Shown here in pieces: positions 11,733 to 53,121 of a DNA stretch of 64,000 nucleotides. The translations under genes were made by a program, and so were the position numbers. The stretch is from Alphaproteobacteria bacterium (GTDB lineage Bacteria; Pseudomonadota; Alphaproteobacteria; RF32; CAG-239), in assembly GCA_044432975.1 (NCBI GenBank), contig JAWXUC010000002.1:24573-88572 (forward strand), in the 5' to 3' direction. The notes under the pieces are model-generated. The model was not told the origin of the DNA, ran no database searches, and worked only from the letters and a program-made list of their open reading frames with translations. Position 1 is the stretch's first letter; the number at the start of each line of letters is the position of its first letter.

Positions 11733-12335
11733 TTAATACCAATCAACACGAGCTAAATATCTTCTTAATGTTATTGTTTGAACGTCAAGGATTTTGGCGA
11801 TTTTGCGTTGAGATAGTCCTTTATCTAATAAATTCTTTATTTTTCTTGAGTTCTTAGCAAGTTTTAATTTTTTTGATTGTGCAGATAAGGGACGGCCTAG
11901 TTTTTTGCCGTTTGCTCTAACGCTATCTAATGAGGCCTTTGTGCGTTGAGAGATTAGGTTTCTTTCTATTTCTGCTGACAAACCAAATGCAAATGCCATC
12001 ACCTTGGATTGTATATCATTGCCTAAAGAATAATTTTCTTTGATTGTGATAATTTTGCAACCTTTAGACAAGCAATTTTCTAGTATTTTCATAACTTCTA
12101 GCAAAGAACGACCTAGCCTTGATATTTCTGTTGAGATTAACATATCGCCTTCTTGCAATTCTTCTAACAAAGTGCCTAGTTTTCTTTTATTTAATGATTT
12201 TCTTGAAGATATAGTTTCTTCAACCCAGCGATTTATTGTAATATTATTGGCTTTTGCATATTTTTTAATCTCAAATTTTTGATGTTCTGTTGTTTGTTTA
12301 TTGGAACTAACTCTAATATATCCCACAATTTGCAT
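11733..12335 (-). CDS. small serine recombinase (resolvase/invertase family; Hin/Gin/TnpR-like)
   Basis: 200 aa. MQIVGYIRVSSNKQ catalytic-serine N-terminus, the LISTEISRLGRS motif, and a C-terminal HTH (LSQRKIAKILDVQTITLRRY). Confidence 0.8.
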   Translation of the reverse strand: MQIVGYIRVSSNKQTTEHQKFEIKKYAKANNITINRWVEETISSRKSLNKRKLGTLLEELQEGDMLISTEISRLGRSLLEVMKILENCLSKGCKIITIKENYSLGNDIQSKVMAFAFGLSAEIERNLISQRTKASLDSVRANGKKLGRPLSAQSKKLKLAKNSRKIKNLLDKGLSQRKIAKILDVQTITLRRYLARVDWY

Positions 12336-15217: not shown

Positions 15218-15239
15218 TATTTAATAAAAACAAAAAAAA

Positions 15240-15276
15240 CAACCGCTAAAATTAATTATTTAGCGGTTGTTTTTTT
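15240..15276 (+). terminator. rho-independent terminator after the autotransporter gene
   Basis: aaccgctaaa/tttagcggtt stem followed by a T8 tract. Confidence 0.65.
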
Positions 15277-27862: not shown

Positions 27863-30583
27863 ATGGAACTTAACCAAGCAATTAAGTTAGTAAAATCAGG
27901 CGAGTTTAAAGAACTAGCCATTTTTGACTTATGGGAACTTACATCTGTTTTAGAAGCATCTAACTCAACAGATGCTCAAATAGCCCTTCAAGAAGTAAAT
28001 GGAGTTTATTCTCAATCTTATATGAAAGATGAAAACAAAAACTTTGGAGAAATTGTAAAAACAAACATAAAAGCAATAGAAGCTTTAAATTACAACCCAA
28101 TGTCAGATGTTGAAAATAAAGAAGTTCAAAGAATAAACAAAATTTTTAACAATATAGAAATAGAAAACACTCCTGATGCAGATTATGTTTCTCATCAAGA
28201 CTTTAAAGATTTTATGATAGAAGTTTCAGATTTAGAAGCTCAAGAAGTTTTATTAAAAAACAAAAACTTTGCTCAATTAGATAAAACAGAACAAAAAAAG
28301 GCTTATAACAACGCTTTCTTTTCTTCAATACAAGCAAACTTAGTTACTTTGGTTAGCAACACTTTTCGCCCTAAAAACTTGCAAGAGGCAAACGAGCTAT
28401 CAAAAGAAGCTATGTCTGGCTTAGTAAATGCCAACAAAAAATTCAAAGTTACAAATACAAACGCTATTGCTATTATTAACAATGCTTATAAAAGAACAAA
28501 AACCTTTGCAGATAACTTAGCTAAAAAAACAGGCATTTCTTGGTTGGCCCAAAAGGTTAAAGCTTTTGATAAAAAAGCTTCAGAAAAATTCCCAACATCA
28601 TGGGGATTATTAAAAACATTTGGCACATCTTATGGTGCAATGGTATTTGGTGGTCCCGTTGGTATTGCAGCTTTAAGTGGATACAATTTATACAAAACAA
28701 CCAAAGCTATAAATAAAGAAGCTCAAGCCAACAATAAAAACTTCTTCCAACAAGTATTTAGCAAACCAAGTACTGCAATTTCATTTAGTATTGCAATTGC
28801 AGGTACAGCATTAACAGGTTATTCTGCATTTTCATCTGGCTTTAACTATGGTTTAATAGAAAAAGCTTTTGATGGTAAAGCTATAGAAGGAGTTAAAACT
28901 TTAGGAGCTAATTTAAGCACATTTAACTTTGATGCATTAAAAAACACAGATTTTTGGAAAAGAACTGCAGTAATGTCTTCAGGTTCATTAGCTGTTATTT
29001 CAGAAGAAGTTTATGGAGCATTAAATACTAAAGATAAAAAAGAAAGAAAAGCTAGATGGAAAAAAGTACAAGCTGTTGCCTTAACATCTATAGCAGGTAT
29101 TGGACTTGGTGCAACAACAAACGCCTTAATGTCAGAAGCAACCGTTGCTACAAATACAGACACAAATACAGATATTAATACAGACACAAAGCAACCTGCA
29201 ACCCCAGAACCTGTTGCAACAACTGAATTAAATACAGAAAGAAAATTCAACTTCTTCGATAAATTTATTTCTGGAGATAATAATAACAATTCTCAAGAAT
29301 TCAAAGTTGTTGCAGATAACACTCAAGATACAACTCAAACCACAGAACCTGTTGCAACAACTGAATTAAATACAGAAAGAAAATTCAGCTTCTTCGATAA
29401 ATTTATTTCTGGAGATAATAATAACAATTCTCAAGAATTCAAAATTGTTGCAGATGATGTTCAAAATACAAATCAAACATCAGATGTTGTTACAACAGAA
29501 GCATCTCAAGATGTTTCAGATTTCATTAAAGACACACACAGAAGCTATAGTGCAGATGAATTTAGAGACAGCCATAGAATTATGAACATGTGGGTTGAAA
29601 AAGACAACTTAAACTCTGTAATAAGCAACTTGCAAGAAGCCGGCTTAACAGAAGCTGAAGCATATAGATATGCTCACAATGCAGCTATTTGTGGTTCTCA
29701 AACAACAGATAGCATTTCACAAGCAGCTCCTAGTTATGAAGGCGAATTTGATGCAAGCAGACAAACTTGTGGCAGAACAGCTTCTAACGGATATCACACA
29801 TTATGGGGTGGCAAAGCCCTTGTTGATGCTGGTTTAACATTAGATGCCAGAAACACATTAGCAGGATCTGTTAACTTCCATACAGGTGAGGTTATTATCT
29901 CTCAAGAAGCTATGACAGCTTTTAGAGACTTTGACGCCAGATTAATTGACAATGGTGTTATTGACACAGGCGCATTAGTTAATGCCAACGCAAGTGATTG
30001 CAACCATTTATCAGGAAACACTCGTATAAATGAACATGGTCAATCTGTTTTAGGCAGCAATGGTGGAAACCGTTTTTCATCTTATGCCACAACAGATGTT
30101 AAACCAACACCAGTAGCAACTCCAGAACCTGTTATAGTTCCTGAAAAAGTTGTTGAACCAGTTGTAATACCAAAGCCAATAATTAATGAGCCAATTGTTT
30201 TTCCAGAAAGACTTGTAATTCCAGAACCTATTATAATTCCAGATCCTGTTGTTGCTCCAGAACCTATTATAACTCCAGATCCTGTAGTTGAACCAAGAGC
30301 TAACAGCGGACACTATGACAACTATGAAGATTTGTTAAGACAAGTAGGCATAGATCCCGCAACAGAAACTCCACTTGATTCAACAGAATTAAAAGATATC
30401 TTAAATTCAAATGGTGGACACTCAAGTGATTTGAACTCATTAAATTCTACAGAAAACACTCAATCAAATCATTATGATAGCAAACAAGATTTGTTAGAAC
30501 AAATGAACATAGAGCCTGCTGAAGAAGAAAAACCATTAACAGCAAGACAATTAAGAAGAATGTTAAGACAATCTTCAAGATAA
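27863..30583 (+). CDS. large repeat-containing hypothetical protein; putative secreted or effector protein
   Basis: About 906 aa from the RBS-supported ATG; the track ORF begins at 27800. Four Gly/Ala-rich hydrophobic segments. A 46-aa tandem duplication (TEPVATTELNTERKF[NS]FFDKFISGDNNNNSQEFK). A Pro-rich PEPV/PDPV region. No signal peptide. Confidence 0.5.
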   Translation: MELNQAIKLVKSGEFKELAIFDLWELTSVLEASNSTDAQIALQEVNGVYSQSYMKDENKNFGEIVKTNIKAIEALNYNPMSDVENKEVQRINKIFNNIEIENTPDADYVSHQDFKDFMIEVSDLEAQEVLLKNKNFAQLDKTEQKKAYNNAFFSSIQANLVTLVSNTFRPKNLQEANELSKEAMSGLVNANKKFKVTNTNAIAIINNAYKRTKTFADNLAKKTGISWLAQKVKAFDKKASEKFPTSWGLLKTFGTSYGAMVFGGPVGIAALSGYNLYKTTKAINKEAQANNKNFFQQVFSKPSTAISFSIAIAGTALTGYSAFSSGFNYGLIEKAFDGKAIEGVKTLGANLSTFNFDALKNTDFWKRTAVMSSGSLAVISEEVYGALNTKDKKERKARWKKVQAVALTSIAGIGLGATTNALMSEATVATNTDTNTDINTDTKQPATPEPVATTELNTERKFNFFDKFISGDNNNNSQEFKVVADNTQDTTQTTEPVATTELNTERKFSFFDKFISGDNNNNSQEFKIVADDVQNTNQTSDVVTTEASQDVSDFIKDTHRSYSADEFRDSHRIMNMWVEKDNLNSVISNLQEAGLTEAEAYRYAHNAAICGSQTTDSISQAAPSYEGEFDASRQTCGRTASNGYHTLWGGKALVDAGLTLDARNTLAGSVNFHTGEVIISQEAMTAFRDFDARLIDNGVIDTGALVNANASDCNHLSGNTRINEHGQSVLGSNGGNRFSSYATTDVKPTPVATPEPVIVPEKVVEPVVIPKPIINEPIVFPERLVIPEPIIIPDPVVAPEPIITPDPVVEPRANSGHYDNYEDLLRQVGIDPATETPLDSTELKDILNSNGGHSSDLNSLNSTENTQSNHYDSKQDLLEQMNIEPAEEEKPLTARQLRRMLRQSSR
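29207..29454 (+). repeat. intragenic tandem duplication (about 110 bp near-identical, 138-bp period, 2 copies)
   Basis: gaacctgttgcaacaactgaattaaatacagaaagaaaattca… repeated at 29207 and 29345. Confidence 0.7.
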
Positions 30584-36348: not shown

Positions 36349-37818
36349 ATGAAAATAAGTTTAATTATACCTGTTTACAATGCATTAGAGGATGTAAAAA
36401 AATGCTTAAATAGTATATGTGAAAACTATAATAAATCTTATGAATTTATTATAGTTGACGACTCTTCTGATAACATAACTAGTGACTATCTCAAAAATTT
36501 TGCAAAAGAAAATAATTTTGTAAAATTATACAGAAATAAAGAAAATCTTGGTTTTGTTAAGACATGTAATTTTGCAATTAATAAAGCAAAAGGAGATATT
36601 GTTGTTTTATTAAATTCAGACACAATTATACCTTCAATGTTTGCAGAAAAAATTATAGATGCTTTTAATAAAAATGAAAAAGCAGGAATTGCATGTCCTA
36701 TTCCTAGTAGTAGTGGTCATTTTAGTTTAGAAATGCCTAAAAATTTTACTGTAGAGAAAATGAATAAATTAATTAACAAAAGACATACTCAATACCCCAA
36801 ACTTCCTTCATGCAATGGGTTTTGTTTTTGTATTAAACGAGAAGTTATTAACTCTATTGGTTACTTAGATGAGATCTATGGAAAAGGTTATGGGGAAGAA
36901 ATTGATTATTCATATAAAGCAATAGTTAATAAATTTGATTGTATCCTAATAGATAATTTATATGTTTTTCATAAAAGACATGCTTCTTTTGGAAATCAAA
37001 GAGATAAATTAAGCTTAAAAGGTAGCGAAATATTAAGAGAACATTGGGGAGATTTCTCTGAAGAATGGATAAAAGAAAATAAATATGTTAATCCAGTTTC
37101 TAAAATTGAGAAAAAAATATTCATTTCAAGAAAAACGTTTTTAACAAAAATAAAAAAAGAAAATGGTAGAAGAATAATTTATTTATTTGGAATTAAAATA
37201 TTAAGCTATAAGAAAAAAGTTAAACCCAAAAAGTATATTCCTTTAATAAAAAAAGAAGGCAAAAGATGGTTGGAAATTGGTCCTGGAAATGAAAGAATAG
37301 AAGGATTTGAAGGCTTAAACATTGTTAAAAACAATGCAACTGATTATATTGCCGATGTTGCAAAAGATGGAATTCCTTTTATAAATGAAAGTTTTGATTT
37401 AGTTTATTCATCTCATTTTCTTGAACATATAGAATGGTATAAAACTAAAGATGTTATTATAGAGATGTATAGAGTATTAAAAAAAGGTGGACATGTAGAA
37501 ATTCACGTTCCTGATGGATTAAAAATAGCAAAAGCTTTTGTTGATGCTGAAATGAAAAATTCTAAAGATTTTCATAAAGATAATTGGTGGAAATTTAATG
37601 ATGACAAAGATCCTTGCATTTGGGCAAGTGGTAAAACTTTTACATATGGAGATGGGAATGTAATTAAAGGACATTGGAATTCTCATTTAGCAATGTTTTC
37701 TTATAGATATTTAGAAAAACTATTAAAAGAAATTGGTTTTAAAAACATTAAGAAGTTAGACAAACCAAGAGGACATAACCACGGCTGGATTAACTTAGGA
37801 ATTAGCGGTGAAAAATAA
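36349..37818 (+). CDS. bifunctional GT2 glycosyltransferase / methyltransferase fusion, joined through the recurrent motif
   Basis: N-terminal GT2 domain (ISLIIPVYNALEDV…IIVDDSSDN). Linker …KENGRRIIYLFGIKILSYKKKV…. C-terminal methyltransferase (…FDLVYSSHFLEHIEW…). Confidence 0.65.
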   Translation: MKISLIIPVYNALEDVKKCLNSICENYNKSYEFIIVDDSSDNITSDYLKNFAKENNFVKLYRNKENLGFVKTCNFAINKAKGDIVVLLNSDTIIPSMFAEKIIDAFNKNEKAGIACPIPSSSGHFSLEMPKNFTVEKMNKLINKRHTQYPKLPSCNGFCFCIKREVINSIGYLDEIYGKGYGEEIDYSYKAIVNKFDCILIDNLYVFHKRHASFGNQRDKLSLKGSEILREHWGDFSEEWIKENKYVNPVSKIEKKIFISRKTFLTKIKKENGRRIIYLFGIKILSYKKKVKPKKYIPLIKKEGKRWLEIGPGNERIEGFEGLNIVKNNATDYIADVAKDGIPFINESFDLVYSSHFLEHIEWYKTKDVIIEMYRVLKKGGHVEIHVPDGLKIAKAFVDAEMKNSKDFHKDNWWKFNDDKDPCIWASGKTFTYGDGNVIKGHWNSHLAMFSYRYLEKLLKEIGFKNIKKLDKPRGHNHGWINLGISGEK

Positions 37819-37862: not shown

Positions 37863-38015
37863 ATTTTATTCCAAATGATAAAAAAAAGTCACTCCTCAAA
37901 TTATAGCAACAATTTGATTAGGAGTCTTCCTTTGAAAAATAAAAATTGAAGATTCCTAATCATTGCTTCGCAATGAGGAATGACTTTTTTCTCATATTTT
38001 AGGAAATCATTCTTA

Positions 38016-38309
38016 TTATTTAGGATACTTTTCCTTTATTTCGGTGATTTTTTCTTGCCACAGGTTTGTTTCATTAACCTTGTCCCAATACATCATGTCT
38101 AATTGCTCATTAAGGGTAGGGTATTCTAACACTCTTTTTTCAGCATACGTTGGTTCAGGAGCAATAGGCGCATAGCCAGACAAATAAAACTTCCCATCAT
38201 ATCCTTGCTCAACTTCAACATAATCAATCCCTTGCTTTTCTGCCACAATTTGATTTAATATCTGATATTCCTTAGTCTCTTCATTTATTAATTTCGCTCT
38301 TATTAACAT
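38016..38309 (-). CDS. small protein downstream-coupled to the tail-fibre-like gene; possible fibre assembly or chaperone partner
   Basis: 97 aa with a 1-nt overlap with the upstream gene. No recognisable motif. The function is inferred from context only. Confidence 0.3.
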   Translation of the reverse strand: MLIRAKLINEETKEYQILNQIVAEKQGIDYVEVEQGYDGKFYLSGYAPIAPEPTYAEKRVLEYPTLNEQLDMMYWDKVNETNLWQEKITEIKEKYPK

Positions 38310-39244
38310 TAATTAACTCCTTTCAATGGATAAACCTTTACACCACCTTGAGAAAACGTTATAACATCACCAACATCACAATAAACATGACAATTGGCTT
38401 TTGCATAATTATTATTCCCATAAACATCCCTGTTTAAATATCCAACATCCACACCATTAACATATACATTACCAGTCGATCCAGCATGGTTACCAATACC
38501 CACAACAAAACAAATCTCAGTACAAACATACCCCGTACTTATACTAACACCTGCGCTATAATCAGGAACAATCCAATTAACAACCTCTGCCTTTCCATCA
38601 TCAGAAATATTATCCATATCAACAGATGCTATGGTTTCTAAATTATCAGAAATTTCTTGCACTTTTTCTGTCGCCAACTCTGCTTTTTCTGTCGCAATTT
38701 CTGCTTTTTCTGTTGCAACTTCAGCTGCTACTACAGCCGTTTCTTTAGCCTCTAAAAGAACTGTCCCCAATGTATTAACCTCAACAACAGAATTCTCCAA
38801 ACGTGTGCCATCAGCATTCCAAATAAGAGATTTTCCAGCCTTTGGACTTGGCAAAGTTAAGTCAACATCTGTTGATGTCGCATAAGGAGGATAAATCATC
38901 GCTCTGCTTAAGTCATCATTCAAATCTTGAATACACGCCATTTGATAATCAAACTCATAATTCAATGTCGAAGCCCTTAACGCTCCGCCTTCCTGAAACT
39001 GCGTTGTCCGCTCTATCGGAATATTTCTCATTATAGTAACAACAACACCGCTTTGAGGGGCGGTGTTAAAAGTTATAGTCGCTTGCGTGTCATCATTTAA
39101 GACAACACTATAATTATCTGATGATATTAGTTCATCATCAAAATATATTTCCACCCCATCATCAATAAAAATCTCAAACGGAGTCTCATATTCAGTATTT
39201 TCACCATTAGAAACATACTGAATTCTTGATTCTTCACTACTCAT
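38309..39244 (-). CDS. phage tail-fibre-like protein
   Basis: 311 aa. N-terminal shaft-attachment-like region, a heptad coiled-coil (AVVAAEVATEKAEIATEKAELATEKVQEIS), and a C-terminal Gly/Tyr/Asn-rich beta domain (…GNVYVNGVDVGYLNRDVYGNNNY…). Confidence 0.5.
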   Translation of the reverse strand: MSSEESRIQYVSNGENTEYETPFEIFIDDGVEIYFDDELISSDNYSVVLNDDTQATITFNTAPQSGVVVTIMRNIPIERTTQFQEGGALRASTLNYEFDYQMACIQDLNDDLSRAMIYPPYATSTDVDLTLPSPKAGKSLIWNADGTRLENSVVEVNTLGTVLLEAKETAVVAAEVATEKAEIATEKAELATEKVQEISDNLETIASVDMDNISDDGKAEVVNWIVPDYSAGVSISTGYVCTEICFVVGIGNHAGSTGNVYVNGVDVGYLNRDVYGNNNYAKANCHVYCDVGDVITFSQGGVKVYPLKGVN

Positions 39245-42533: not shown

Positions 42534-44993
42534 ATGAAAGACGAATTAAATGTAATTAACGAAATAGATAGAGCAAGATTAAAGCTATCTATAGAACATT
42601 ATATTAAATATTTTATCGCCAAAAGAAGTTCAGAATTAACAAAAGAAGAAACCCTAAAAGCCATCTCTTTAGCTGTAAGAGAATTTGCTATGGATAAAAT
42701 GTATGAAACCATGGCAAGATACAATAAAGTTGGCACAAAAAGAGTTTATTATTTATCAATTGAATATTTAATTGGTCGTTCTTTAGAAAACAACCTTCAC
42801 AATCTTGGCTTGTTTGACATCATGAATTCTCTTAAAATTGATGGAATGCCAGATTTTTCATTACAAGAAATCTTTGACGCAGAATATGACCCTGCTTTAG
42901 GTAATGGCGGTTTAGGTAGATTAGCATCTTGTTATTTGGATTCTATAGCATCATTAGGCATCGCAGGATTCGGATATGGCATTAACTATAACTTCGGTTT
43001 GTTTAAGCAAAAATTTGACAACGGATACCAAGTAGAATTAACAGACACATGGGAAGCAGAAAACTCTCCATGGCAAATTGCAAGACCAGATAGAACCTTC
43101 AGAATTCCATTATACGGCAACGTAGAAGTTTTCAAAACATCAGATGGCGAAGATCATTATGTATGGAGTGGTACACAAAGCATTTTTGGTGTTCCTTATG
43201 ATTTTCCAATTGTTGGCTATAACGGTAAATCTGTTAACTACTTAAGATTATTCTCAGCAAAATCAGATGATGAGCTAGACATTAATGTGTTTAATGAAGG
43301 CGCATATATTGATGCCGTTAAAGAAAAAATTGAATCAGAAACAATTTCAAAAGTTCTATACCCATCAGATGCGGTTGAATCAGGAAAAGAACTTAGATTA
43401 AAACAACAATACTTCTTTGTTTCTTGTGCTTGTCAAGACATCTTAAGACGATTCTTAGAAAAAAACAACGACTTTAAAGATTTACCCAAAGAAGTTTGTA
43501 TTCAATTAAATGACACACACCCAGCAATCGCAATTCCAGAAATGATGCGTTTGTTAATGGATATTTATGGTCAAAAGTGGAATGATGCATGGGAAATTAT
43601 TACAAAAGTGTTTGCATATACAAACCACACATTATTACCAGAAGCATTAGAAACATGGCCAACAAGAATTATCGGTAAATTATTACCAAGACACCTTCAA
43701 ATTATATTTGAAATCAATCGCAGATTTATGATAGAAGCAAAAAAAGCTGTTGGCGACAATTCTGCTGTATTATCAAAATTATCAATCGTTGCAGGTGAGG
43801 GTGATAGTCAAATTATCAGAATGGCAAACTTATCAATTGTTGGTTCATTCTCTGTAAATGGTGTTGCAAAATTACACTCAGAACTAGTTAAAAAATCATT
43901 AGTTCCAGAATTTTACAACCTATGGCCTCACAAATTCAAAAACGTTACAAACGGAGTTACTCCAAGACGTTGGTTATTACACGCAAACCATGAACTAGGA
44001 GAATTAATTGACGAAACAGTTGGCTCTGATTGGGTAACAAATTTTGATACATTGTCAAAACTAAAAAAATTCACTAAAGACAAAAAATTCTTAAATAAAT
44101 TAGCTGATATTAAAAAAACAGATAAAAAGAAACTAGCTAAATTTATCGTAAAAACAACAGGCATTAGTATTGATACAAATTCAATGTTTATTGTTCATGC
44201 AAAAAGAATTCATGAATACAAACGTCAAATGATGACAGTTCTAGAAATCATTGGTGAATATTTATCTATCGTTAAAGATAATAAAAAACCAATCACAAAC
44301 AAAGTTTATATTTTTGCAGGAAAAGCTGCTCCATCTTATCATTTTGCAAAATTAACTATCAAATTAATTAACAACGTTGCAGAAGTTGTTAACAATGATC
44401 CAAGAGTAGGCGATGCACTTAAAGTTGTGTTTATTCCTGACTACAAAGTATCTGTTGCCGAAACATTAATCCCTGGTGCAAACGTTAGTGTACAAAGCTC
44501 AACAGCAGGCTTTGAAGCAAGTGGAACAGGTAATATGAAATTTGCAATTAATGGTGCATTAACAGTTGGTACTTATGACGGCGCAAATATTGAAATTATG
44601 GAAAAAGTTGGTAAATCAAATTTCTATTTATTTGGTAAAACAGAAGAAGAAATTGTTGCTCTTCGTTCAACATACAATCCACAAGAAAAATATAACAACT
44701 CAGCATATATCAAAAGAATATTAAACGCAGTTAATTCTAGCATGTTCTGTGAAAAAGAATACGCATTAATATTCAAGCCCGTATTTGATGAATTAACTAC
44801 AAAAGATTACTTTATGGTATTAGAAGATTTAGAAGCTTTCCACGAAGCTATGAACAAAGCATCTAAAGATTATAATGATAAAGAAAAATGGGGTGCAAAA
44901 TCATTAAATAACATCGCCAACATGGGCTACTTCTCATCAGACAGATCAATCATGGACTACGCAAATGACATCTGGAAAGTAAAACCTTGTTGA
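42534..44993 (+). CDS. glgP: glycogen / alpha-glucan phosphorylase
   Basis: EASGTGNMKFAINGALTVGTYDGANIE (PLP-lysine motif), 819 aa from the AGGA-supported ATG. The track ORF starts at 42486. Confidence 0.85.
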   Translation: MKDELNVINEIDRARLKLSIEHYIKYFIAKRSSELTKEETLKAISLAVREFAMDKMYETMARYNKVGTKRVYYLSIEYLIGRSLENNLHNLGLFDIMNSLKIDGMPDFSLQEIFDAEYDPALGNGGLGRLASCYLDSIASLGIAGFGYGINYNFGLFKQKFDNGYQVELTDTWEAENSPWQIARPDRTFRIPLYGNVEVFKTSDGEDHYVWSGTQSIFGVPYDFPIVGYNGKSVNYLRLFSAKSDDELDINVFNEGAYIDAVKEKIESETISKVLYPSDAVESGKELRLKQQYFFVSCACQDILRRFLEKNNDFKDLPKEVCIQLNDTHPAIAIPEMMRLLMDIYGQKWNDAWEIITKVFAYTNHTLLPEALETWPTRIIGKLLPRHLQIIFEINRRFMIEAKKAVGDNSAVLSKLSIVAGEGDSQIIRMANLSIVGSFSVNGVAKLHSELVKKSLVPEFYNLWPHKFKNVTNGVTPRRWLLHANHELGELIDETVGSDWVTNFDTLSKLKKFTKDKKFLNKLADIKKTDKKKLAKFIVKTTGISIDTNSMFIVHAKRIHEYKRQMMTVLEIIGEYLSIVKDNKKPITNKVYIFAGKAAPSYHFAKLTIKLINNVAEVVNNDPRVGDALKVVFIPDYKVSVAETLIPGANVSVQSSTAGFEASGTGNMKFAINGALTVGTYDGANIEIMEKVGKSNFYLFGKTEEEIVALRSTYNPQEKYNNSAYIKRILNAVNSSMFCEKEYALIFKPVFDELTTKDYFMVLEDLEAFHEAMNKASKDYNDKEKWGAKSLNNIANMGYFSSDRSIMDYANDIWKVKPC

Positions 44994-45006
44994 TAAAAAA
45001 CAAATA

Positions 45007-45033
45007 GGGCGGGAATTTACTCCCGCCTTTTTT
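45007..45033 (+). terminator. rho-independent terminator after glgP
   Basis: gggcggga/tcccgcc stem followed by a T6 tract. Confidence 0.65.
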
Positions 45034-45042
45034 ATATAACTT

Positions 45043-45700
45043 TGTCATTACGAGCGAATGCGAAGTAATCCAGTCAAACCATTATTCTTACTATCTTCCC
45101 CACCTGCGGGGGAAGTGCCCGCTAGGGCGATGGGGGGTATAAATTATATTTTTCCTTTTTTTTCATAGCGGACTGTCAATGACCACCTACAATTATTATT
45201 GTCATCGCGCCACAAAATTTATTTTGGGGCTTAACGATCTTCTATTTTTAAAATCGGAAGTATCCATATAAGCGGGACGCCGAGGGCGTCGTCCCCTACA
45301 ACTACCCCGACACCTTTGGCGCCACCCCTTCACTTATGAAGGGGAATTTTCAACCGTCATTTGGTAAGTTTTGTCATTGCGGACTTGATCCGCAATCCAG
45401 TTAATAATAATTCTTTTTTGTGGGACGGATGTGGAATCCGTCCCCATAACTACCCCGTCGCCTTTGGCGCCACCCCTTCACAAGTGAAGGGGAATTTTCA
45501 ACCGTCATTGCGAGCGAAGCGTGGCAAAATACGCTTAGTGTTGCGAGGCTTTAGCCGAAGCAATGCTTAGTCTTTTCGTACAAGTAGAATTGCTTTGCAA
45601 TTCGTAGCGGTACAATCCAGTCGAAAAAACATTCCTTTTTTCAGGGACGGAAGACCCGTACCCTACAACCTTCATTTTTGCAAAAAAGTGCAAAAATTGC
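45043..45700. repeat. gene-free repeat hub holding several palindromic families
   Basis: RPE-like copies at 45043, 45372 and 45501. A roughly 60-bp direct repeat x2 (ctaccccg[ac]c[ag]cctttggcgccaccccttcac..gtgaaggggaattttcaaccgtcatt at 45303 and 45443). GTAG-type hairpins at 45280 and 45415. Confidence 0.65.
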
Positions 45701-45799
45701 GTTTTTTGGTGGATATGGGCAAAAAATAAATATTTTGGGAGGATTATTAACTGACCATAAACCCATATATTCTGGTATTTTGACACCTGTCTTAAAAAC

Positions 45800-45946
45800 A
45801 TAGTGTCTATTTTAAACCACCGTCTAGAATAGACACTTTTAGTGTTACAGTTTTGTTAAATTATGTTATTGATTTCACTTATTTCTTGATTTTTTTAAAG
45901 TTTATGATAGTGTCTATTCTAGACGGTCGTTTAAAATAGACACTAT
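45800..45946. mobile_element. MITE-like 147-bp element with 37-bp terminal inverted repeats, each arm itself palindromic
   Basis: atagtgtctattttaaaccaccgtctagaatagacact at 45800-45836 and its reverse complement with one mismatch at 45908-45946, separated by a 71-bp AT-rich core. Confidence 0.45.
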
Positions 45947-45951
45947 AAAAA

Positions 45952-45979
45952 TAACCCCTAGCCCTTACGGGCTGGGGGT
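45952..45979. terminator. GC-rich hairpin, possible bidirectional terminator
   Basis: cccctagccc-ttac-gggctggggg, flanked by A/T runs. Confidence 0.4.
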
Positions 45980-46065
45980 TTGAAGTATGTTCAAAAAATG
46001 TGTTTTTTTATTTTAAAAGAAAAAACACACACCCTAAAAAAGACCAATAATCGACCCTCCAAACA

Positions 46066-46560
46066 TTACACCAATGGATTATATGCCCATTGCAATAATG
46101 CTTGACGTTGTTTTGCTCGACATTCTATATCCATTGGTATACAGTTTTTAATCACCTGTGCTTGATGACGCCTAAAAGACTTCCAGCGCTTTATTTGAAC
46201 TTTATCAACACTTTCAATTCTGCGTCCCATATAATATCGACAATACCATTGAAACCAACCTCTAGGATCAGGCTCTAAAATCCAACCCTTATCACGCCAA
46301 ATTTGCAAAGATTGCCTAGACTTAACGCCAAAAAAGTTTAAGCTGGCATCAGGTTTTAATGGCGATAATTTTGCATTATCAAACCAAGAAGCAGGAAATT
46401 CTTTTTTGCAATCACATAAATACTTGCCCTCAAAAACCCCCATTTTAAGCATTTCTTCTGGGCTTAATTCTGGTTTAAATTCTTTGGCAAATTCTTTACC
46501 TTGAGGGCAAATACGTTTATAAATATAACCGCTTTGCATTTTATCATTAACAATTATCAT
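46066..46560 (-). CDS. hypothetical Cys/Trp-rich protein, co-transcribed with the porin
   Basis: 164 aa. Several Cys (CPQG, CDC, CRYY, CIPMDIEC). 4-nt overlap with the upstream porin gene. Confidence 0.45.
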   Translation of the reverse strand: MIIVNDKMQSGYIYKRICPQGKEFAKEFKPELSPEEMLKMGVFEGKYLCDCKKEFPASWFDNAKLSPLKPDASLNFFGVKSRQSLQIWRDKGWILEPDPRGWFQWYCRYYMGRRIESVDKVQIKRWKSFRRHQAQVIKNCIPMDIECRAKQRQALLQWAYNPLV

Positions 46561-47903: not shown

Positions 47904-48054
47904 TGTCATACGGACTTAATCCACAATCCAACCACACAGGCTTCGTCATTGCGGACTTGATCCGCAATCCAACCACACGAGCTTCGTCATTGCGGACTTG
48001 ATCCGCAATCCAACCACACGAGCTTCGTCATTGCGGACTTGATCCGCAATCCAG
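47904..48054. repeat. tandem array of a 41-bp RPE-like palindromic unit (one degenerate plus three copies)
   Basis: cttcgtcattgcggacttgatccgcaatccaaccacacgag x3, preceded by a degenerate copy. Sits between the porin promoter region and the 3' end of the next gene. Confidence 0.75.
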
Positions 48055-49804: not shown

Positions 49805-49932
49805 ATTGTGTTTTATAATAATTTGTAGGGAATGGTCTTGACCATTCCTTTGAAATTAGCCATATTATACAAGGAACAGTCAAGACTGTTCCCTACAAGA
49901 GATATATATCAAATAATTTTGCGTTTGCTATA
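49805..49932. repeat. roughly 130-bp REPIN-like element, copy 2
   Basis: About 96% identical to 25678-25812 across both GTAG-headed hairpins and flanks. A few substitutions and a 2-bp indel. Confidence 0.6.
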
Positions 49933-50080
49933 CTGTCCGATAAAAATATTAAGTGCTTTTATAAAAATTAAAAAATAAAAAACACAATATAATAAACGTT
50001 TGAAATATATTGACAATTTCACTCTCCGTGTCATTGCTATTTTTATCTTTAGATTTCAAAGCTTTATTACACATTACAAC

Positions 50081-50791
50081 TTAAACTTTTTCCTTTTTAT
50101 AAATAAAGAACACTGGTTTTCGTCCTTCTCTAATTGCTTTTTTCTGATATTTAGTTTCCACCCAATTTTCTGGAGCATAACGCCAGTCATTGCTATTTTT
50201 TGCAGTCCAAATAAAGTTTTTATTTTTATTCATTTCTCTTAAAGTCCAAGCCTTATAAACTTTATGATCAGTTGCCACCACAAACAAACCATCTGGTTTT
50301 AAAATACGATGAATTTCTTTTAAATTTTCTGGATTAATAAACCTTCTCGAAGCATGACGTTTTTTTGGCCAAGGATCAGGAAACAATAAAAATATCTTAT
50401 CCAAAGAACTATCAGGAATTTTATCAAACAACAGCCTAACATCATCACTCCACACCCTAACATTATCAAAGCGAGTAGGGAGCAAGGAAATTTCTTCTGG
50501 TAATTCTTTTCCTTCTTTAACACCTGTCATTAAACTTAATAAATTAGCCACACCATTGGCAAAAACTTCTGCTCCAATAAAAAAAGTATTTTGCATTTTT
50601 TGAGACAATCCAGCCAAATGAGAACCATCACCAAAACCAATCTCTAAAAAAACTTCTTTAGCATCAGACATTTCTTCAAAAGAAACCTTTGGTAAAAATT
50701 CTTTTAACAAAGCTGTTTTTGCAACTCTTATTTTTCTACCAACACGTCTACCAAAAAACTTTGGATTTCCACTATTATTTATATCCGTCAT
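50081..50791 (-). CDS. trmB: tRNA (guanine-N7)-methyltransferase TrmB
   Basis: FLEIGFGDGSHLAGL (SAM-binding) and LFPDPWPKKRHASRRFI (the TrmB signature). Confidence 0.8.
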   Translation of the reverse strand: MTDINNSGNPKFFGRRVGRKIRVAKTALLKEFLPKVSFEEMSDAKEVFLEIGFGDGSHLAGLSQKMQNTFFIGAEVFANGVANLLSLMTGVKEGKELPEEISLLPTRFDNVRVWSDDVRLLFDKIPDSSLDKIFLLFPDPWPKKRHASRRFINPENLKEIHRILKPDGLFVVATDHKVYKAWTLREMNKNKNFIWTAKNSNDWRYAPENWVETKYQKKAIREGRKPVFFIYKKEKV

Positions 50792-51336
50792 TATTCTTCA
50801 TTTTCTTCATTATTAAAAGATGTCTTAGACATTTGAATAACCATATCAAACAAATGCTTTGCCACTTTTCTATTTTGAATTTTATAATAAGCTCTAACAA
50901 GCTCCATAGCTTCTTTTTTATGCATAGGATCATCATCAAACTCAACTTTGTTATCACTCATCATTAACGGAGCAGTCTGCGGAGCCGCAAAAGTCATCGG
51001 ACTTTGAGCCGCTGTTTCATTATCCATATCTTCATAAAAAAAGCCAATTTGCACTTCTAAAGCTTGTGCAATATCATAAAGTCTAGATGCTCCAACTCTA
51101 TTTGCGCCTCTTTCATATTTTTGCACTTGCTGAAAAGTTAAGCCTAACATAGAAGCAAGTTTTTCTTGAGATAACCCTAAAAGAGTTCTACGCAATCTAA
51201 TTCGGTTTCCAACATGAGTATCAATAGGATTAGGATCACCATCTTGAGTTCTACCTCTTTTGGCTTTTTTAGAAACTTCATCATCTTTATTTAATTTTAT
51301 TTTTATTTTAGATTTAGTTTTAGACAATAACTTCAT
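50791..51336 (-). CDS. XRE-family helix-turn-helix transcriptional regulator
   Basis: HTH region IRLRRTLLGLSQEKLASMLGLTFQQVQKYERGANRV. ATGA overlap with trmB. Confidence 0.6.
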   Translation of the reverse strand: MKLLSKTKSKIKIKLNKDDEVSKKAKRGRTQDGDPNPIDTHVGNRIRLRRTLLGLSQEKLASMLGLTFQQVQKYERGANRVGASRLYDIAQALEVQIGFFYEDMDNETAAQSPMTFAAPQTAPLMMSDNKVEFDDDPMHKKEAMELVRAYYKIQNRKVAKHLFDMVIQMSKTSFNNEENEE

Positions 51337-52242: not shown

Positions 52243-53121
52243 TCAAGACTTATTAAGCGGATGAGTTTCTTTATAAGTTTTAGTAATAACTTCAATATTA
52301 GCATCAGTATAGCGCTGCGTAGTTATTAAAGAAGAATGCCCCAAAAGCTCTTGAATTGAGCGCAAATCAGTACCAGCACCCAAAAGATGCGTTGCAAAAG
52401 AATGCCTCAAAGCATGAGGAGTTAATTTATCAGACAACCCCAAAGCATTTCTAATTTTTTCTAACTGCCGTTGAACAATCCGAGGACTTAACCTTTCTCC
52501 ACGAGAACCAATAAACAATGCTGTTTTAATTTGATAAGGGCAAGTCTTTATATATTGATTAATATTTTCTAATACAACATCTAACAATGGCACAAGACGT
52601 GTTTTTCCACCTTTACCTTTTATAATAAGATAATCTCTTCTTTTAACATCTTGCAAATCCAAATTCAAAGCTTCAGAAATTCGCAAACCAGAGCCATAGA
52701 ACAGGGACAATATTGCACAATCTCTAAACCCTTGCCATTCCTCTTTATTTATTTTTTTAGCCATTTCAAGCACATCAAAAGCATCATCACTTTCAATCGC
52801 CTTAGGAATATATTTAGGAGTTTTCGGCGCAGAAATCACAGATATTGCAGAATTTTTAACGTCTTTCTTTTTATCCAACCATTTATAAAAACTTTTAACC
52901 GAAGATAACTTTCTGGCAATCGTAGTTTTTGACAATTGTTTTTGATTAAGAAAAGACAAATAGCGCCTAAAATCCTTAACATCTAAATCCAAATTATCAA
53001 ACATTTCAAAAAACTCTTCAATATCTCTAGTATATGCTTCAACAGTGTGATGAGAATACATCTTCTCACACTGCAAATAAGTTAAGAACTGTTTTAAGTT
53101 TTCTCTTGCCTCTTTAATCAT
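52243..53121 (-). CDS. tyrosine site-specific recombinase XerC/XerD
   Basis: HALRHSFATHLL…GTDLRSIQELLGHSSLITTQRYT (the R-H-R-Y catalytic tetrad context). XerC versus XerD not resolved. Confidence 0.8.
   Translation of the reverse strand: MIKEARENLKQFLTYLQCEKMYSHHTVEAYTRDIEEFFEMFDNLDLDVKDFRRYLSFLNQKQLSKTTIARKLSSVKSFYKWLDKKKDVKNSAISVISAPKTPKYIPKAIESDDAFDVLEMAKKINKEEWQGFRDCAILSLFYGSGLRISEALNLDLQDVKRRDYLIIKGKGGKTRLVPLLDVVLENINQYIKTCPYQIKTALFIGSRGERLSPRIVQRQLEKIRNALGLSDKLTPHALRHSFATHLLGAGTDLRSIQELLGHSSLITTQRYTDANIEVITKTYKETHPLNKS

Follow-up and report, generated by a model that had tools for sequence, protein, structure and literature searches.

A 147-bp double palindrome behind a porin operon terminator, a candidate REP-dimer-like element in an AT-rich alphaproteobacterial genome

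We find a non-coding double palindrome of 147 bp at 45800-45946 of a 64-kb window (the whole stretch of DNA that was analyzed, and on which all positions are counted). At a probability of about one half, we propose that it belongs to the REP-dimer/REPIN/MITE class, as a non-autonomous palindromic element that is solitary or low in copy number. In this view an imperfect palindrome of 36-38 nt, present in two inverted copies with a 71-nt AT-rich spacer between them, would have been inserted or built in the A/T tract that comes directly after the intrinsic terminator, on the 3' side, of an operon for a porin and a 164-aa protein. The element would be an ordinary but unproven member of a well-known kind.

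Anatomy and position of the double palindrome

The element consists of two arms of 38 nt each around a core (Table 1). A reading of the DNA from its letters alone (hereafter the sequence-only reading) had described a 147-bp element with nested palindromes and 37-bp arms; the total length and the nesting stand, and the arms are one nucleotide longer. As that reading had claimed, the arms are reverse complements with one mismatch around a 71-bp AT-rich core: they are 97% complementary, and the single mismatch falls in the 4-nt loop of the arm hairpin. A difference at only 1 of 38 positions suggests that the arms are of recent origin. Each arm is in turn an inverted repeat, again in agreement with the earlier description. 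In the left arm, which can be written as AGTGTCTATTtTAaAC-CACC-GTcTAgAATAGACACT, 16-nt half-sites (45802-45817 against 45822-45837) form 14 of 16 possible pairs around the 4-nt loop, and the right arm forms the same kind of local hairpin. Because the asymmetric positions, namely the two mismatched pairs and the 4-nt loop, match in the inverted register, the arms are true inverted copies of one another (97% identity, versus 82% in the direct register). The arm stems are AU-rich, and the outer ends read ATAG and CTAT, with the AG and CT belonging to the stem.

The double palindrome is far beyond chance. In 100 dinucleotide shuffles the full arm is expected 0 times, and the fold z-scores are -14.7 for the minus-strand RNA, -13.5 for the plus-strand RNA and -11.9 for the DNA, with no shuffle folding as well. 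The sequence-only reading had foreseen either one long hairpin or a double cruciform. Both conformations are predicted to be possible, with the long hairpin much more stable than the local pair by calculated energy (-57 versus -31 kcal/mol as RNA, -35 versus -13 kcal/mol as DNA). The 71-nt core holds no credible ORF, and relaxed blastn against the window and the other loci collected finds no similarity to it elsewhere.

The window has a GC content of 31% and lacks the HIP1 sites of cyanobacteria; together with the labelling of the source as an alphaproteobacterial MAG, this led us to reject a cyanobacterial origin. Within it the element occupies the edge of a gap of ~1 kb between glgP and the porin operon, which are convergent. 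To its left lie ~770 bp without genes, where the ORFs translate to repeat-derived junk. To its right, the last bases of the terminator tract UUAUUUUUAU run into the right arm. The sequence-only reading had placed the element 3' of an OprB operon and next to a GC-rich hairpin (~45952-45980); that hairpin is real and is the terminator of the operon. Given that the U-tract of this terminator abuts the right arm, the element lies, for the most part, just outside the operon transcript. At the other end, the GUUUUU run and the element stem could together provide weak back-up termination for minus-strand transcripts.

The 164-aa protein encoded at the end of the operon has at least 8000 scored candidate homologues, all with E <=0.001, and the named matches are Alphaproteobacteria MAGs. 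It is thus a conserved protein, and no Pfam, NCBIfam, PHROG or PDB entry matched it. We considered the 164-aa and 409-aa pair as a possible TnpA/TnpB pair of the IS200/IS605 type and ruled this out, as the larger protein is an OprB/AaxA-like porin and the smaller one lacks a match in any of these databases. Exact-protein look-ups for GlgP and for the 88-aa ORF matched no record.

Table 1. Coordinates of the element and of other features in the window
Feature	Position	Strand	Details
Left arm	45800-45837		38 nt; ATAGTGTCTATTTTAAACCACCGTCTAGAATAGACACT; self-hairpin with loop CACC
Core	45838-45908		71 nt, AT-rich; mostly unpaired in all folds
Right arm	45909-45946		38 nt; reverse complement of left arm with one mismatch; self-hairpin over 45909-45944
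TA, left end	45801-45802		candidate target-site duplication
TA, right end	45944-45945		partner of 45801-45802
GUUUUU run	45794-45799	minus	directly after left arm
Intrinsic terminator of porin/164-aa operon	45947-45980	minus	GC-rich hairpin ~45952-45980, then UUAUUUUUAU; unique in window
164-aa ORF	46560-46066	minus	start overlaps porin gene stop
OprB/AaxA-like porin	47786-46557	minus	409 aa
glgP	ends 44993	plus	convergent with porin operon
Terminator beyond glgP	45006-45029
88-aa junk ORF	45801-45535		left of element
REP cluster	45030-45700		GTAG REPs 45274, 45422, 45644 (all minus); CGTC-type 45372, 45498
68-nt direct repeat	45294-45361 and 45442-45509		90% identity; inside REP cluster; each copy with CCCCTTCA-loop-TGAAGGGG hairpin
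GTAG-tagged REPs	7552, 8042, 15287, 45274, 45422, 45644 + dimers of ~130-bp repeat		TGTAGGGGACG-loop-CGTCCC and variants
CGTC subfamily CGTCATTGCGAGCGAAGCGTGGCAATCC	30631, 30786, 39415, 45498
CGTC subfamily CGTCATTGCGGACTTGATCCGCAATCC	45372, 47944, 47985, 48026, 52159
Tandem CGTC array	47911-48053		3 x 41 nt; just upstream of porin gene
~130-bp repeat	25683-25815 and 49806-49935		two copies, 98% identical; both between convergent genes
Logan contig SRR26557936_17570 (L026)	47969-45968		2 kb; 11 samples; same strain

Neighbouring repeats, relatives and the search for copies

The gap at whose edge the element lies is packed with REP hairpins carrying GTAG or CGTC tags, and such hairpins also occur elsewhere in the window. 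We counted nine GTAG-tagged hairpins (TGTAGGG plus stem) and one variant with a GTTATGGGG head, as well as nine CGTC-type hairpins that fall into two subfamilies (GTCATTGCGGACTTGATCCGCAATCC, 5 copies; CGTCATTGCGAGCGAAGCGTGGCAATCC, 4 copies). In each copy of the ~130-bp repeat, two GTAG hairpins (TTGTAGGGAATGGTCTTGACCATTCC ... GGAACAGTCAAGACTGTTCCCTACAA) form a head-to-head dimer, separated by 20-22 nt, and the homology between the copies continues beyond the dimer for ~18 nt on its left side and ~40 nt on its right. By sequence, the GTAG and CGTC units of the window match the REP super-families of Di Nocera et al. The host genome, to judge from these repeats, clearly propagates palindromes of this kind, and the GTAG REPs imply a putative RAYT-type system elsewhere in the genome. 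REP units are palindromes of 20-40 bp that often occur as inverted pairs 20-100 bp apart. The two members of a pair can form a hairpin each or join in a single large stem-loop, and most units are found downstream of genes, where the neighbouring ORFs are unidirectional or convergent (PMC3733652). CGTC REPs are typical of Alphaproteobacteria, and how they spread without a known dedicated transposase is an open question (PMC3733652). The other repeat families within the 64 kb have 2-5 copies each; the double palindrome has one.

Several further sequences in the window were noted along the way. A degenerate CGTC variant near 45042 was seen by eye only. An inverted repeat at 37873-37999, just downstream of a glycosyltransferase/methyltransferase gene ending at 37818, has MITE-like proportions (26-nt arms, 81% complementary, around a 75-nt spacer), and a 927-aa ORF (27800-30583) contains a 138-nt tandem duplication of 93% identity at 29200-29475. 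Isolated genes resembling those of mobile elements encode a protein whose N-terminal domain is of the phage T7 tail-fibre type (38309-39244, minus), a serine resolvase (11733-12335, minus) and an XRE-type HTH protein (50791-51336, minus). The last has its best NCBIfam match, below the family cutoff, in the Wolbachia WO male-killing protein Wmk.

An independent Logan assembly reaches the region from the porin side. Its contig ends inside the GC terminator hairpin at 45968 and, at the other end, inside the 41-nt tandem REP array. Exact look-ups of window proteins, meant to reach strain variants, led to this 2-kb contig alone. The break at 45968 could reflect strain heterogeneity at the element, and the REPs account for the breaks that short-read assemblies of this organism show in this region.

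We looked for further copies at several scales. In the 64-kb window, a sample in which a family of fewer than ~30 copies in the rest of the genome would easily be missed, there is no second copy, including by relaxed blastn (word size 7) with the element, the arm or the core as query, and no further half-site either. The arm returned, beyond itself, just weak matches (E ~0.007) at hairpins that the pattern scans had selected and that share its 10-mers. These scans used the pattern AGTGTCTATT-N12-20-AATAGACACT, in which two 10-mers are required. Run on collections that do not include the source genome itself, they gave 25 loci in the GTDB representative genomes (185,579 species), 40 in JGI/ENA metagenome contigs and 1 in IMG/VR, none of them a second copy. 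The loci are single hairpins in unrelated taxa, and the two required 10-mers are all that they have in common with the element. A second scan of IMG/VR, for the inner part of the arm, returned 5 palindromes, all unrelated, and blastn against phage and plasmid records gave chance AT-rich matches only.

Among the 40 metagenome matches, 11 come from a single conserved locus that is unrelated to the element and in which the motif GGCAAAATAG is repeated (contigs L031, L036, L039, L045, L046, L048, L049, L059, L064, L067 and L068). This locus belongs to an organism of ~40% GC, has conserved flanks and is laid out as GGCAAAATAG..AGC-AGTGTCTATTTTGCC..GGCAAAATAGACACT-GC..GCTATTTTGCC. The stem ends of 10-12 nt that it has in common with the element are apparently due to chance.

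The element alone matters little. Should further copies exist in the full genome, they would make up a new small mobile repeat family in a poorly studied lineage of AT-rich gut Alphaproteobacteria, and GTAG, CGTC and a third palindromic kind would coexist in one small genome. Such coexistence would bear on how repeats spread without a known dedicated transposase (PMC3733652).

The element is absent from distant relatives. Among the matches listed, the closest homologues of the 164-aa protein have 71-74% protein identity. In those relatives the 164-aa gene is separated from the next gene by 30 nt at most, or the two overlap, and the next genes are all different (an unannotated 97-aa ORF, an M50B peptidase, a Na/H exchanger or UvrA). 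Given that the relatives have a short gap or none, and a different next gene, both the long gap and the element are lineage-specific additions, and the element is not part of a conserved 3' UTR. At 71-74% identity and with different downstream genes, these relatives give no comparison of an occupied with an empty site; with the element removed, the hypothetical empty-site junction would read ...CTTAAAAACA-TA-TAAAAATAACCCC.... The 164-aa gene of relatives is not always beside a porin gene.

Marks of transposition were sought at the ends of the element and in the genes around it. No duplication of 3-10 bp is present at any boundary with shifts of 0-5 nt. The only candidate is TA/TA or AT/AT, which is self-complementary and therefore inseparable from where the inverted repeat ends. 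A TA on either side would fit an insertion of the IS630/Tc1 type, as for Correia elements (PMC2649163). A Pfam scan covering 38 of the 45 window ORFs of at least 150 aa detected no DDE transposase and no RAYT (Y1_Tnp), and the recombinases found in the window are just the serine resolvase and a XerC-like protein (52243-53121). The sequence-only reading had called for a related IS with matching ends; none turned up in the window ORFs scanned or in the collections, and the arm pattern itself is in no collection scanned. That reading's proposal of a MITE accordingly holds in part: the architecture and the setting agree with it, and neither a second copy nor an unambiguous target duplication was found in the window or the collections. 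It had also named what would speak against a MITE, namely a unique sequence with no target-site duplication that relatives carry as part of a conserved 3' UTR. As far as checked, the sequence is unique and has no unambiguous duplication of this kind, and the part concerning a conserved 3' UTR does not hold.

Alternative origins of the element

The strongest alternative, which we consider unlikely, is that the structure was never mobile and is a terminator-like 38-bp palindrome that was duplicated in inverted orientation and is kept or tolerated as a second bidirectional barrier between the glgP and porin units. A local origin of this kind fits a sequence that is single-copy everywhere searched and that lies exactly between convergent genes, beside a bona fide terminator. 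It also fits the GUUUUU that follows the stem on the minus strand, and it asks for neither the unambiguous duplication nor the transposase that we failed to find, the latter in the scanned window ORFs. However, the AU-rich stems differ from the terminators elsewhere in the window, which are GC-rich (45006-45029, 45952-45980 and 15233-15276), glgP and the porin operon are each already well terminated, and the plus strand has no U-run after the stem. Furthermore, no simple mechanism would place an inverted copy 71 nt away around an unrelated core, and relatives have not conserved the element.

We regard it as decidedly unlikely that the element is a small RNA gene or a cis-acting RNA, with a transcript that starts inside it and ends at an arm hairpin or the GC hairpin, or with an RNase III site in a 3' UTR. 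Correia and ERIC elements are known to act in such ways (PMC10969869, PMC2649163), and the fold predicted here is very stable on both strands. The element also contains a weak promoter-like site on the minus strand (TAGACA-16-AAAAAT, 45916 to 45889), but promoter-like sites in the region are no commoner than in shuffles (5 found, 6.4 expected). The element comes after the terminator and is mostly outside the operon transcript, and there are no homologues with which covariation could be assessed. Nor did any Rfam family reach threshold: across the whole window tRNA alone passed the gathering threshold, and a local E-value scan gave just sub-threshold matches to plant miRNA precursor hairpins, the best being MIR7502 with 44.7 bits against a threshold of 71.

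A paired operator, as suggested in the sequence-only reading, would consist of two 36-bp palindromes, and the dimer-of-dimers regulator on them would draw the DNA into a loop. The geometry is suitable, as the palindromes are near-identical and their centres are 107 bp apart, or ~10.2 helical turns. It is very improbable nonetheless, because there is no gene to regulate: the 3' end of the operon lies to the right and ~770 bp of repeat debris to the left. No regulator is adjacent either, with the nearest HTH (regulator-like) gene, 50791-51336, being 5 kb off; the half-site is found nowhere else in the window, and relatives lack the element.

Lastly, the footprint of an excised IS, also raised in the sequence-only reading, and an artefact of MAG assembly are both scarcely tenable: the Logan assembly stops 22 nt short, so that it gives no independent confirmation of the element, but excision leaves a few bases and not 147 bp with intact 38-bp ends, and a fold-back chimera would mirror its flanks, whereas here neither the two flanks nor the 71-nt core show complementarity, and all are unique.

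The explanation that we prefer is thus the insertion of a non-autonomous palindromic element behind the operon terminator. The element may have arrived by transposition, through a DDE transposase that targets TA and uses the 38-bp terminal repeats. Alternatively, a RAYT/TIRYT-like HUH enzyme could have acted on the arm hairpins in single-stranded DNA. The REP-filled gap may have offered such repeats a safe harbour. The present effect of the element is probably passive; a read-through transcript would fold into the 38-bp stem, with termination, stabilisation or RNase III cleavage of the RNA as possible outcomes. A bolder version, which we hold to be quite unlikely, is that with this element a REP-dimer family of uncultured gut-type Alphaproteobacteria is recognised for the first time, one that is AT-rich and untagged (ATAG-ended), has a long unpaired spacer and is moved by a RAYT/TIRYT-like or other enzyme encoded elsewhere in the genome. 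Its ATAG ends would then add a third class of tag to the GTAG and CGTC classes seen among the REPs of the same gap.

Comparison with known palindromic elements

The arms show no resemblance by eye to integron attC core sites or to chromosomal dif. Palindrome-associated elements of the IS200/IS605 type are like the element in having sub-terminal hairpins at both ends, and they leave no target duplication. However, their hairpins have a direct orientation on one strand, whereas the arms of the element are inverted copies (97%) rather than direct ones (82%).

The element is closer in build to MITEs, which are shorter than 500 bp, AT-rich, located in AT-rich intergenic DNA and transcribed into very stable RNAs (PMC10969869). 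With its 38-nt terminal inverted repeats (TIRs), length of 147 bp, AT-rich composition and lack of a credible ORF, it has the features of this class; a parent IS was not found, with no transposase in 38 of the 45 ORFs of at least 150 aa and the arm pattern in no collection. The long TIRs, the AT-rich core and the possible TA flanks are likewise found in Correia elements and other bacterial MITEs (RUP, ERIC and Coxiella QMITE). Correia elements (CREE) have a similar size, 104-157 bp, and a transcript of the element would, like theirs, form a long double-stranded stem. The terminus ATAGTG of the element resembles the Correia terminus, TATAGTG, a similarity limited to ~6 terminal bases. CREE repeats are not known to be internally palindromic, whereas the arms of the element are. 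CREE furthermore have >100 copies, clear insertion polymorphisms, promoters, IHF sites in their long forms and a target duplication of TA, rarely CA. The element was found as one copy, has no conserved Correia repeat and ambiguous TA flanks, and a scripted search with the IHF consensus WATCAANNNNTTR gave no match in or near it. For Correia elements, a TA-targeting DDE transposase has been proposed (PMC2649163).

The likeness to REP dimers, BIMEs and REPINs extends to both geometry and location. A REPIN consists of two inverted REPs and a spacer (Bertels & Rainey 2011, PMC3337134). Like these repeats, the element comprises two inverted imperfect palindromes in the range of 20-40 bp (units of 36-38 nt with 14 of 16 pairs) and a spacer, 71 nt, within the range of 20-100 bp. 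It can likewise be folded as two small hairpins or one long one, and it lies downstream of genes between convergent ORFs, here glgP (plus, ending at 44993) and the porin operon (minus, ending at 46066). In contrast to REP dimers and REPINs, its ends read ATAG with a paired AG, so that there is no unpaired GTAG or CGTC, and the true GTAG and CGTC units of the window look different. Its stems are AT-rich, and its spacer, the 71-nt core, is largely unpaired in both the MFE and the centroid structures, unlike the folded spacer of a REPIN. We found one copy of the element, and no RAYT among the window ORFs scanned.

RAYT-like genes can carry long, partly self-complementary TIRs, which also occur as gene-less dimers (PMC3733652). 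The example is the TIRYT gene of Stenotrophomonas maltophilia, ORF 1152 (PMC3733652). The element differs from the S. maltophilia TIRs in that we found for it no TIRYT gene, no further copies, no sequence similarity and no GGGGWSAS motif. It has in common with them the long self-complementary terminal repeats and the arrangement as a dimer without a gene, and such dimers of self-complementary TIRs are the closest published anatomy to the 147-bp element.
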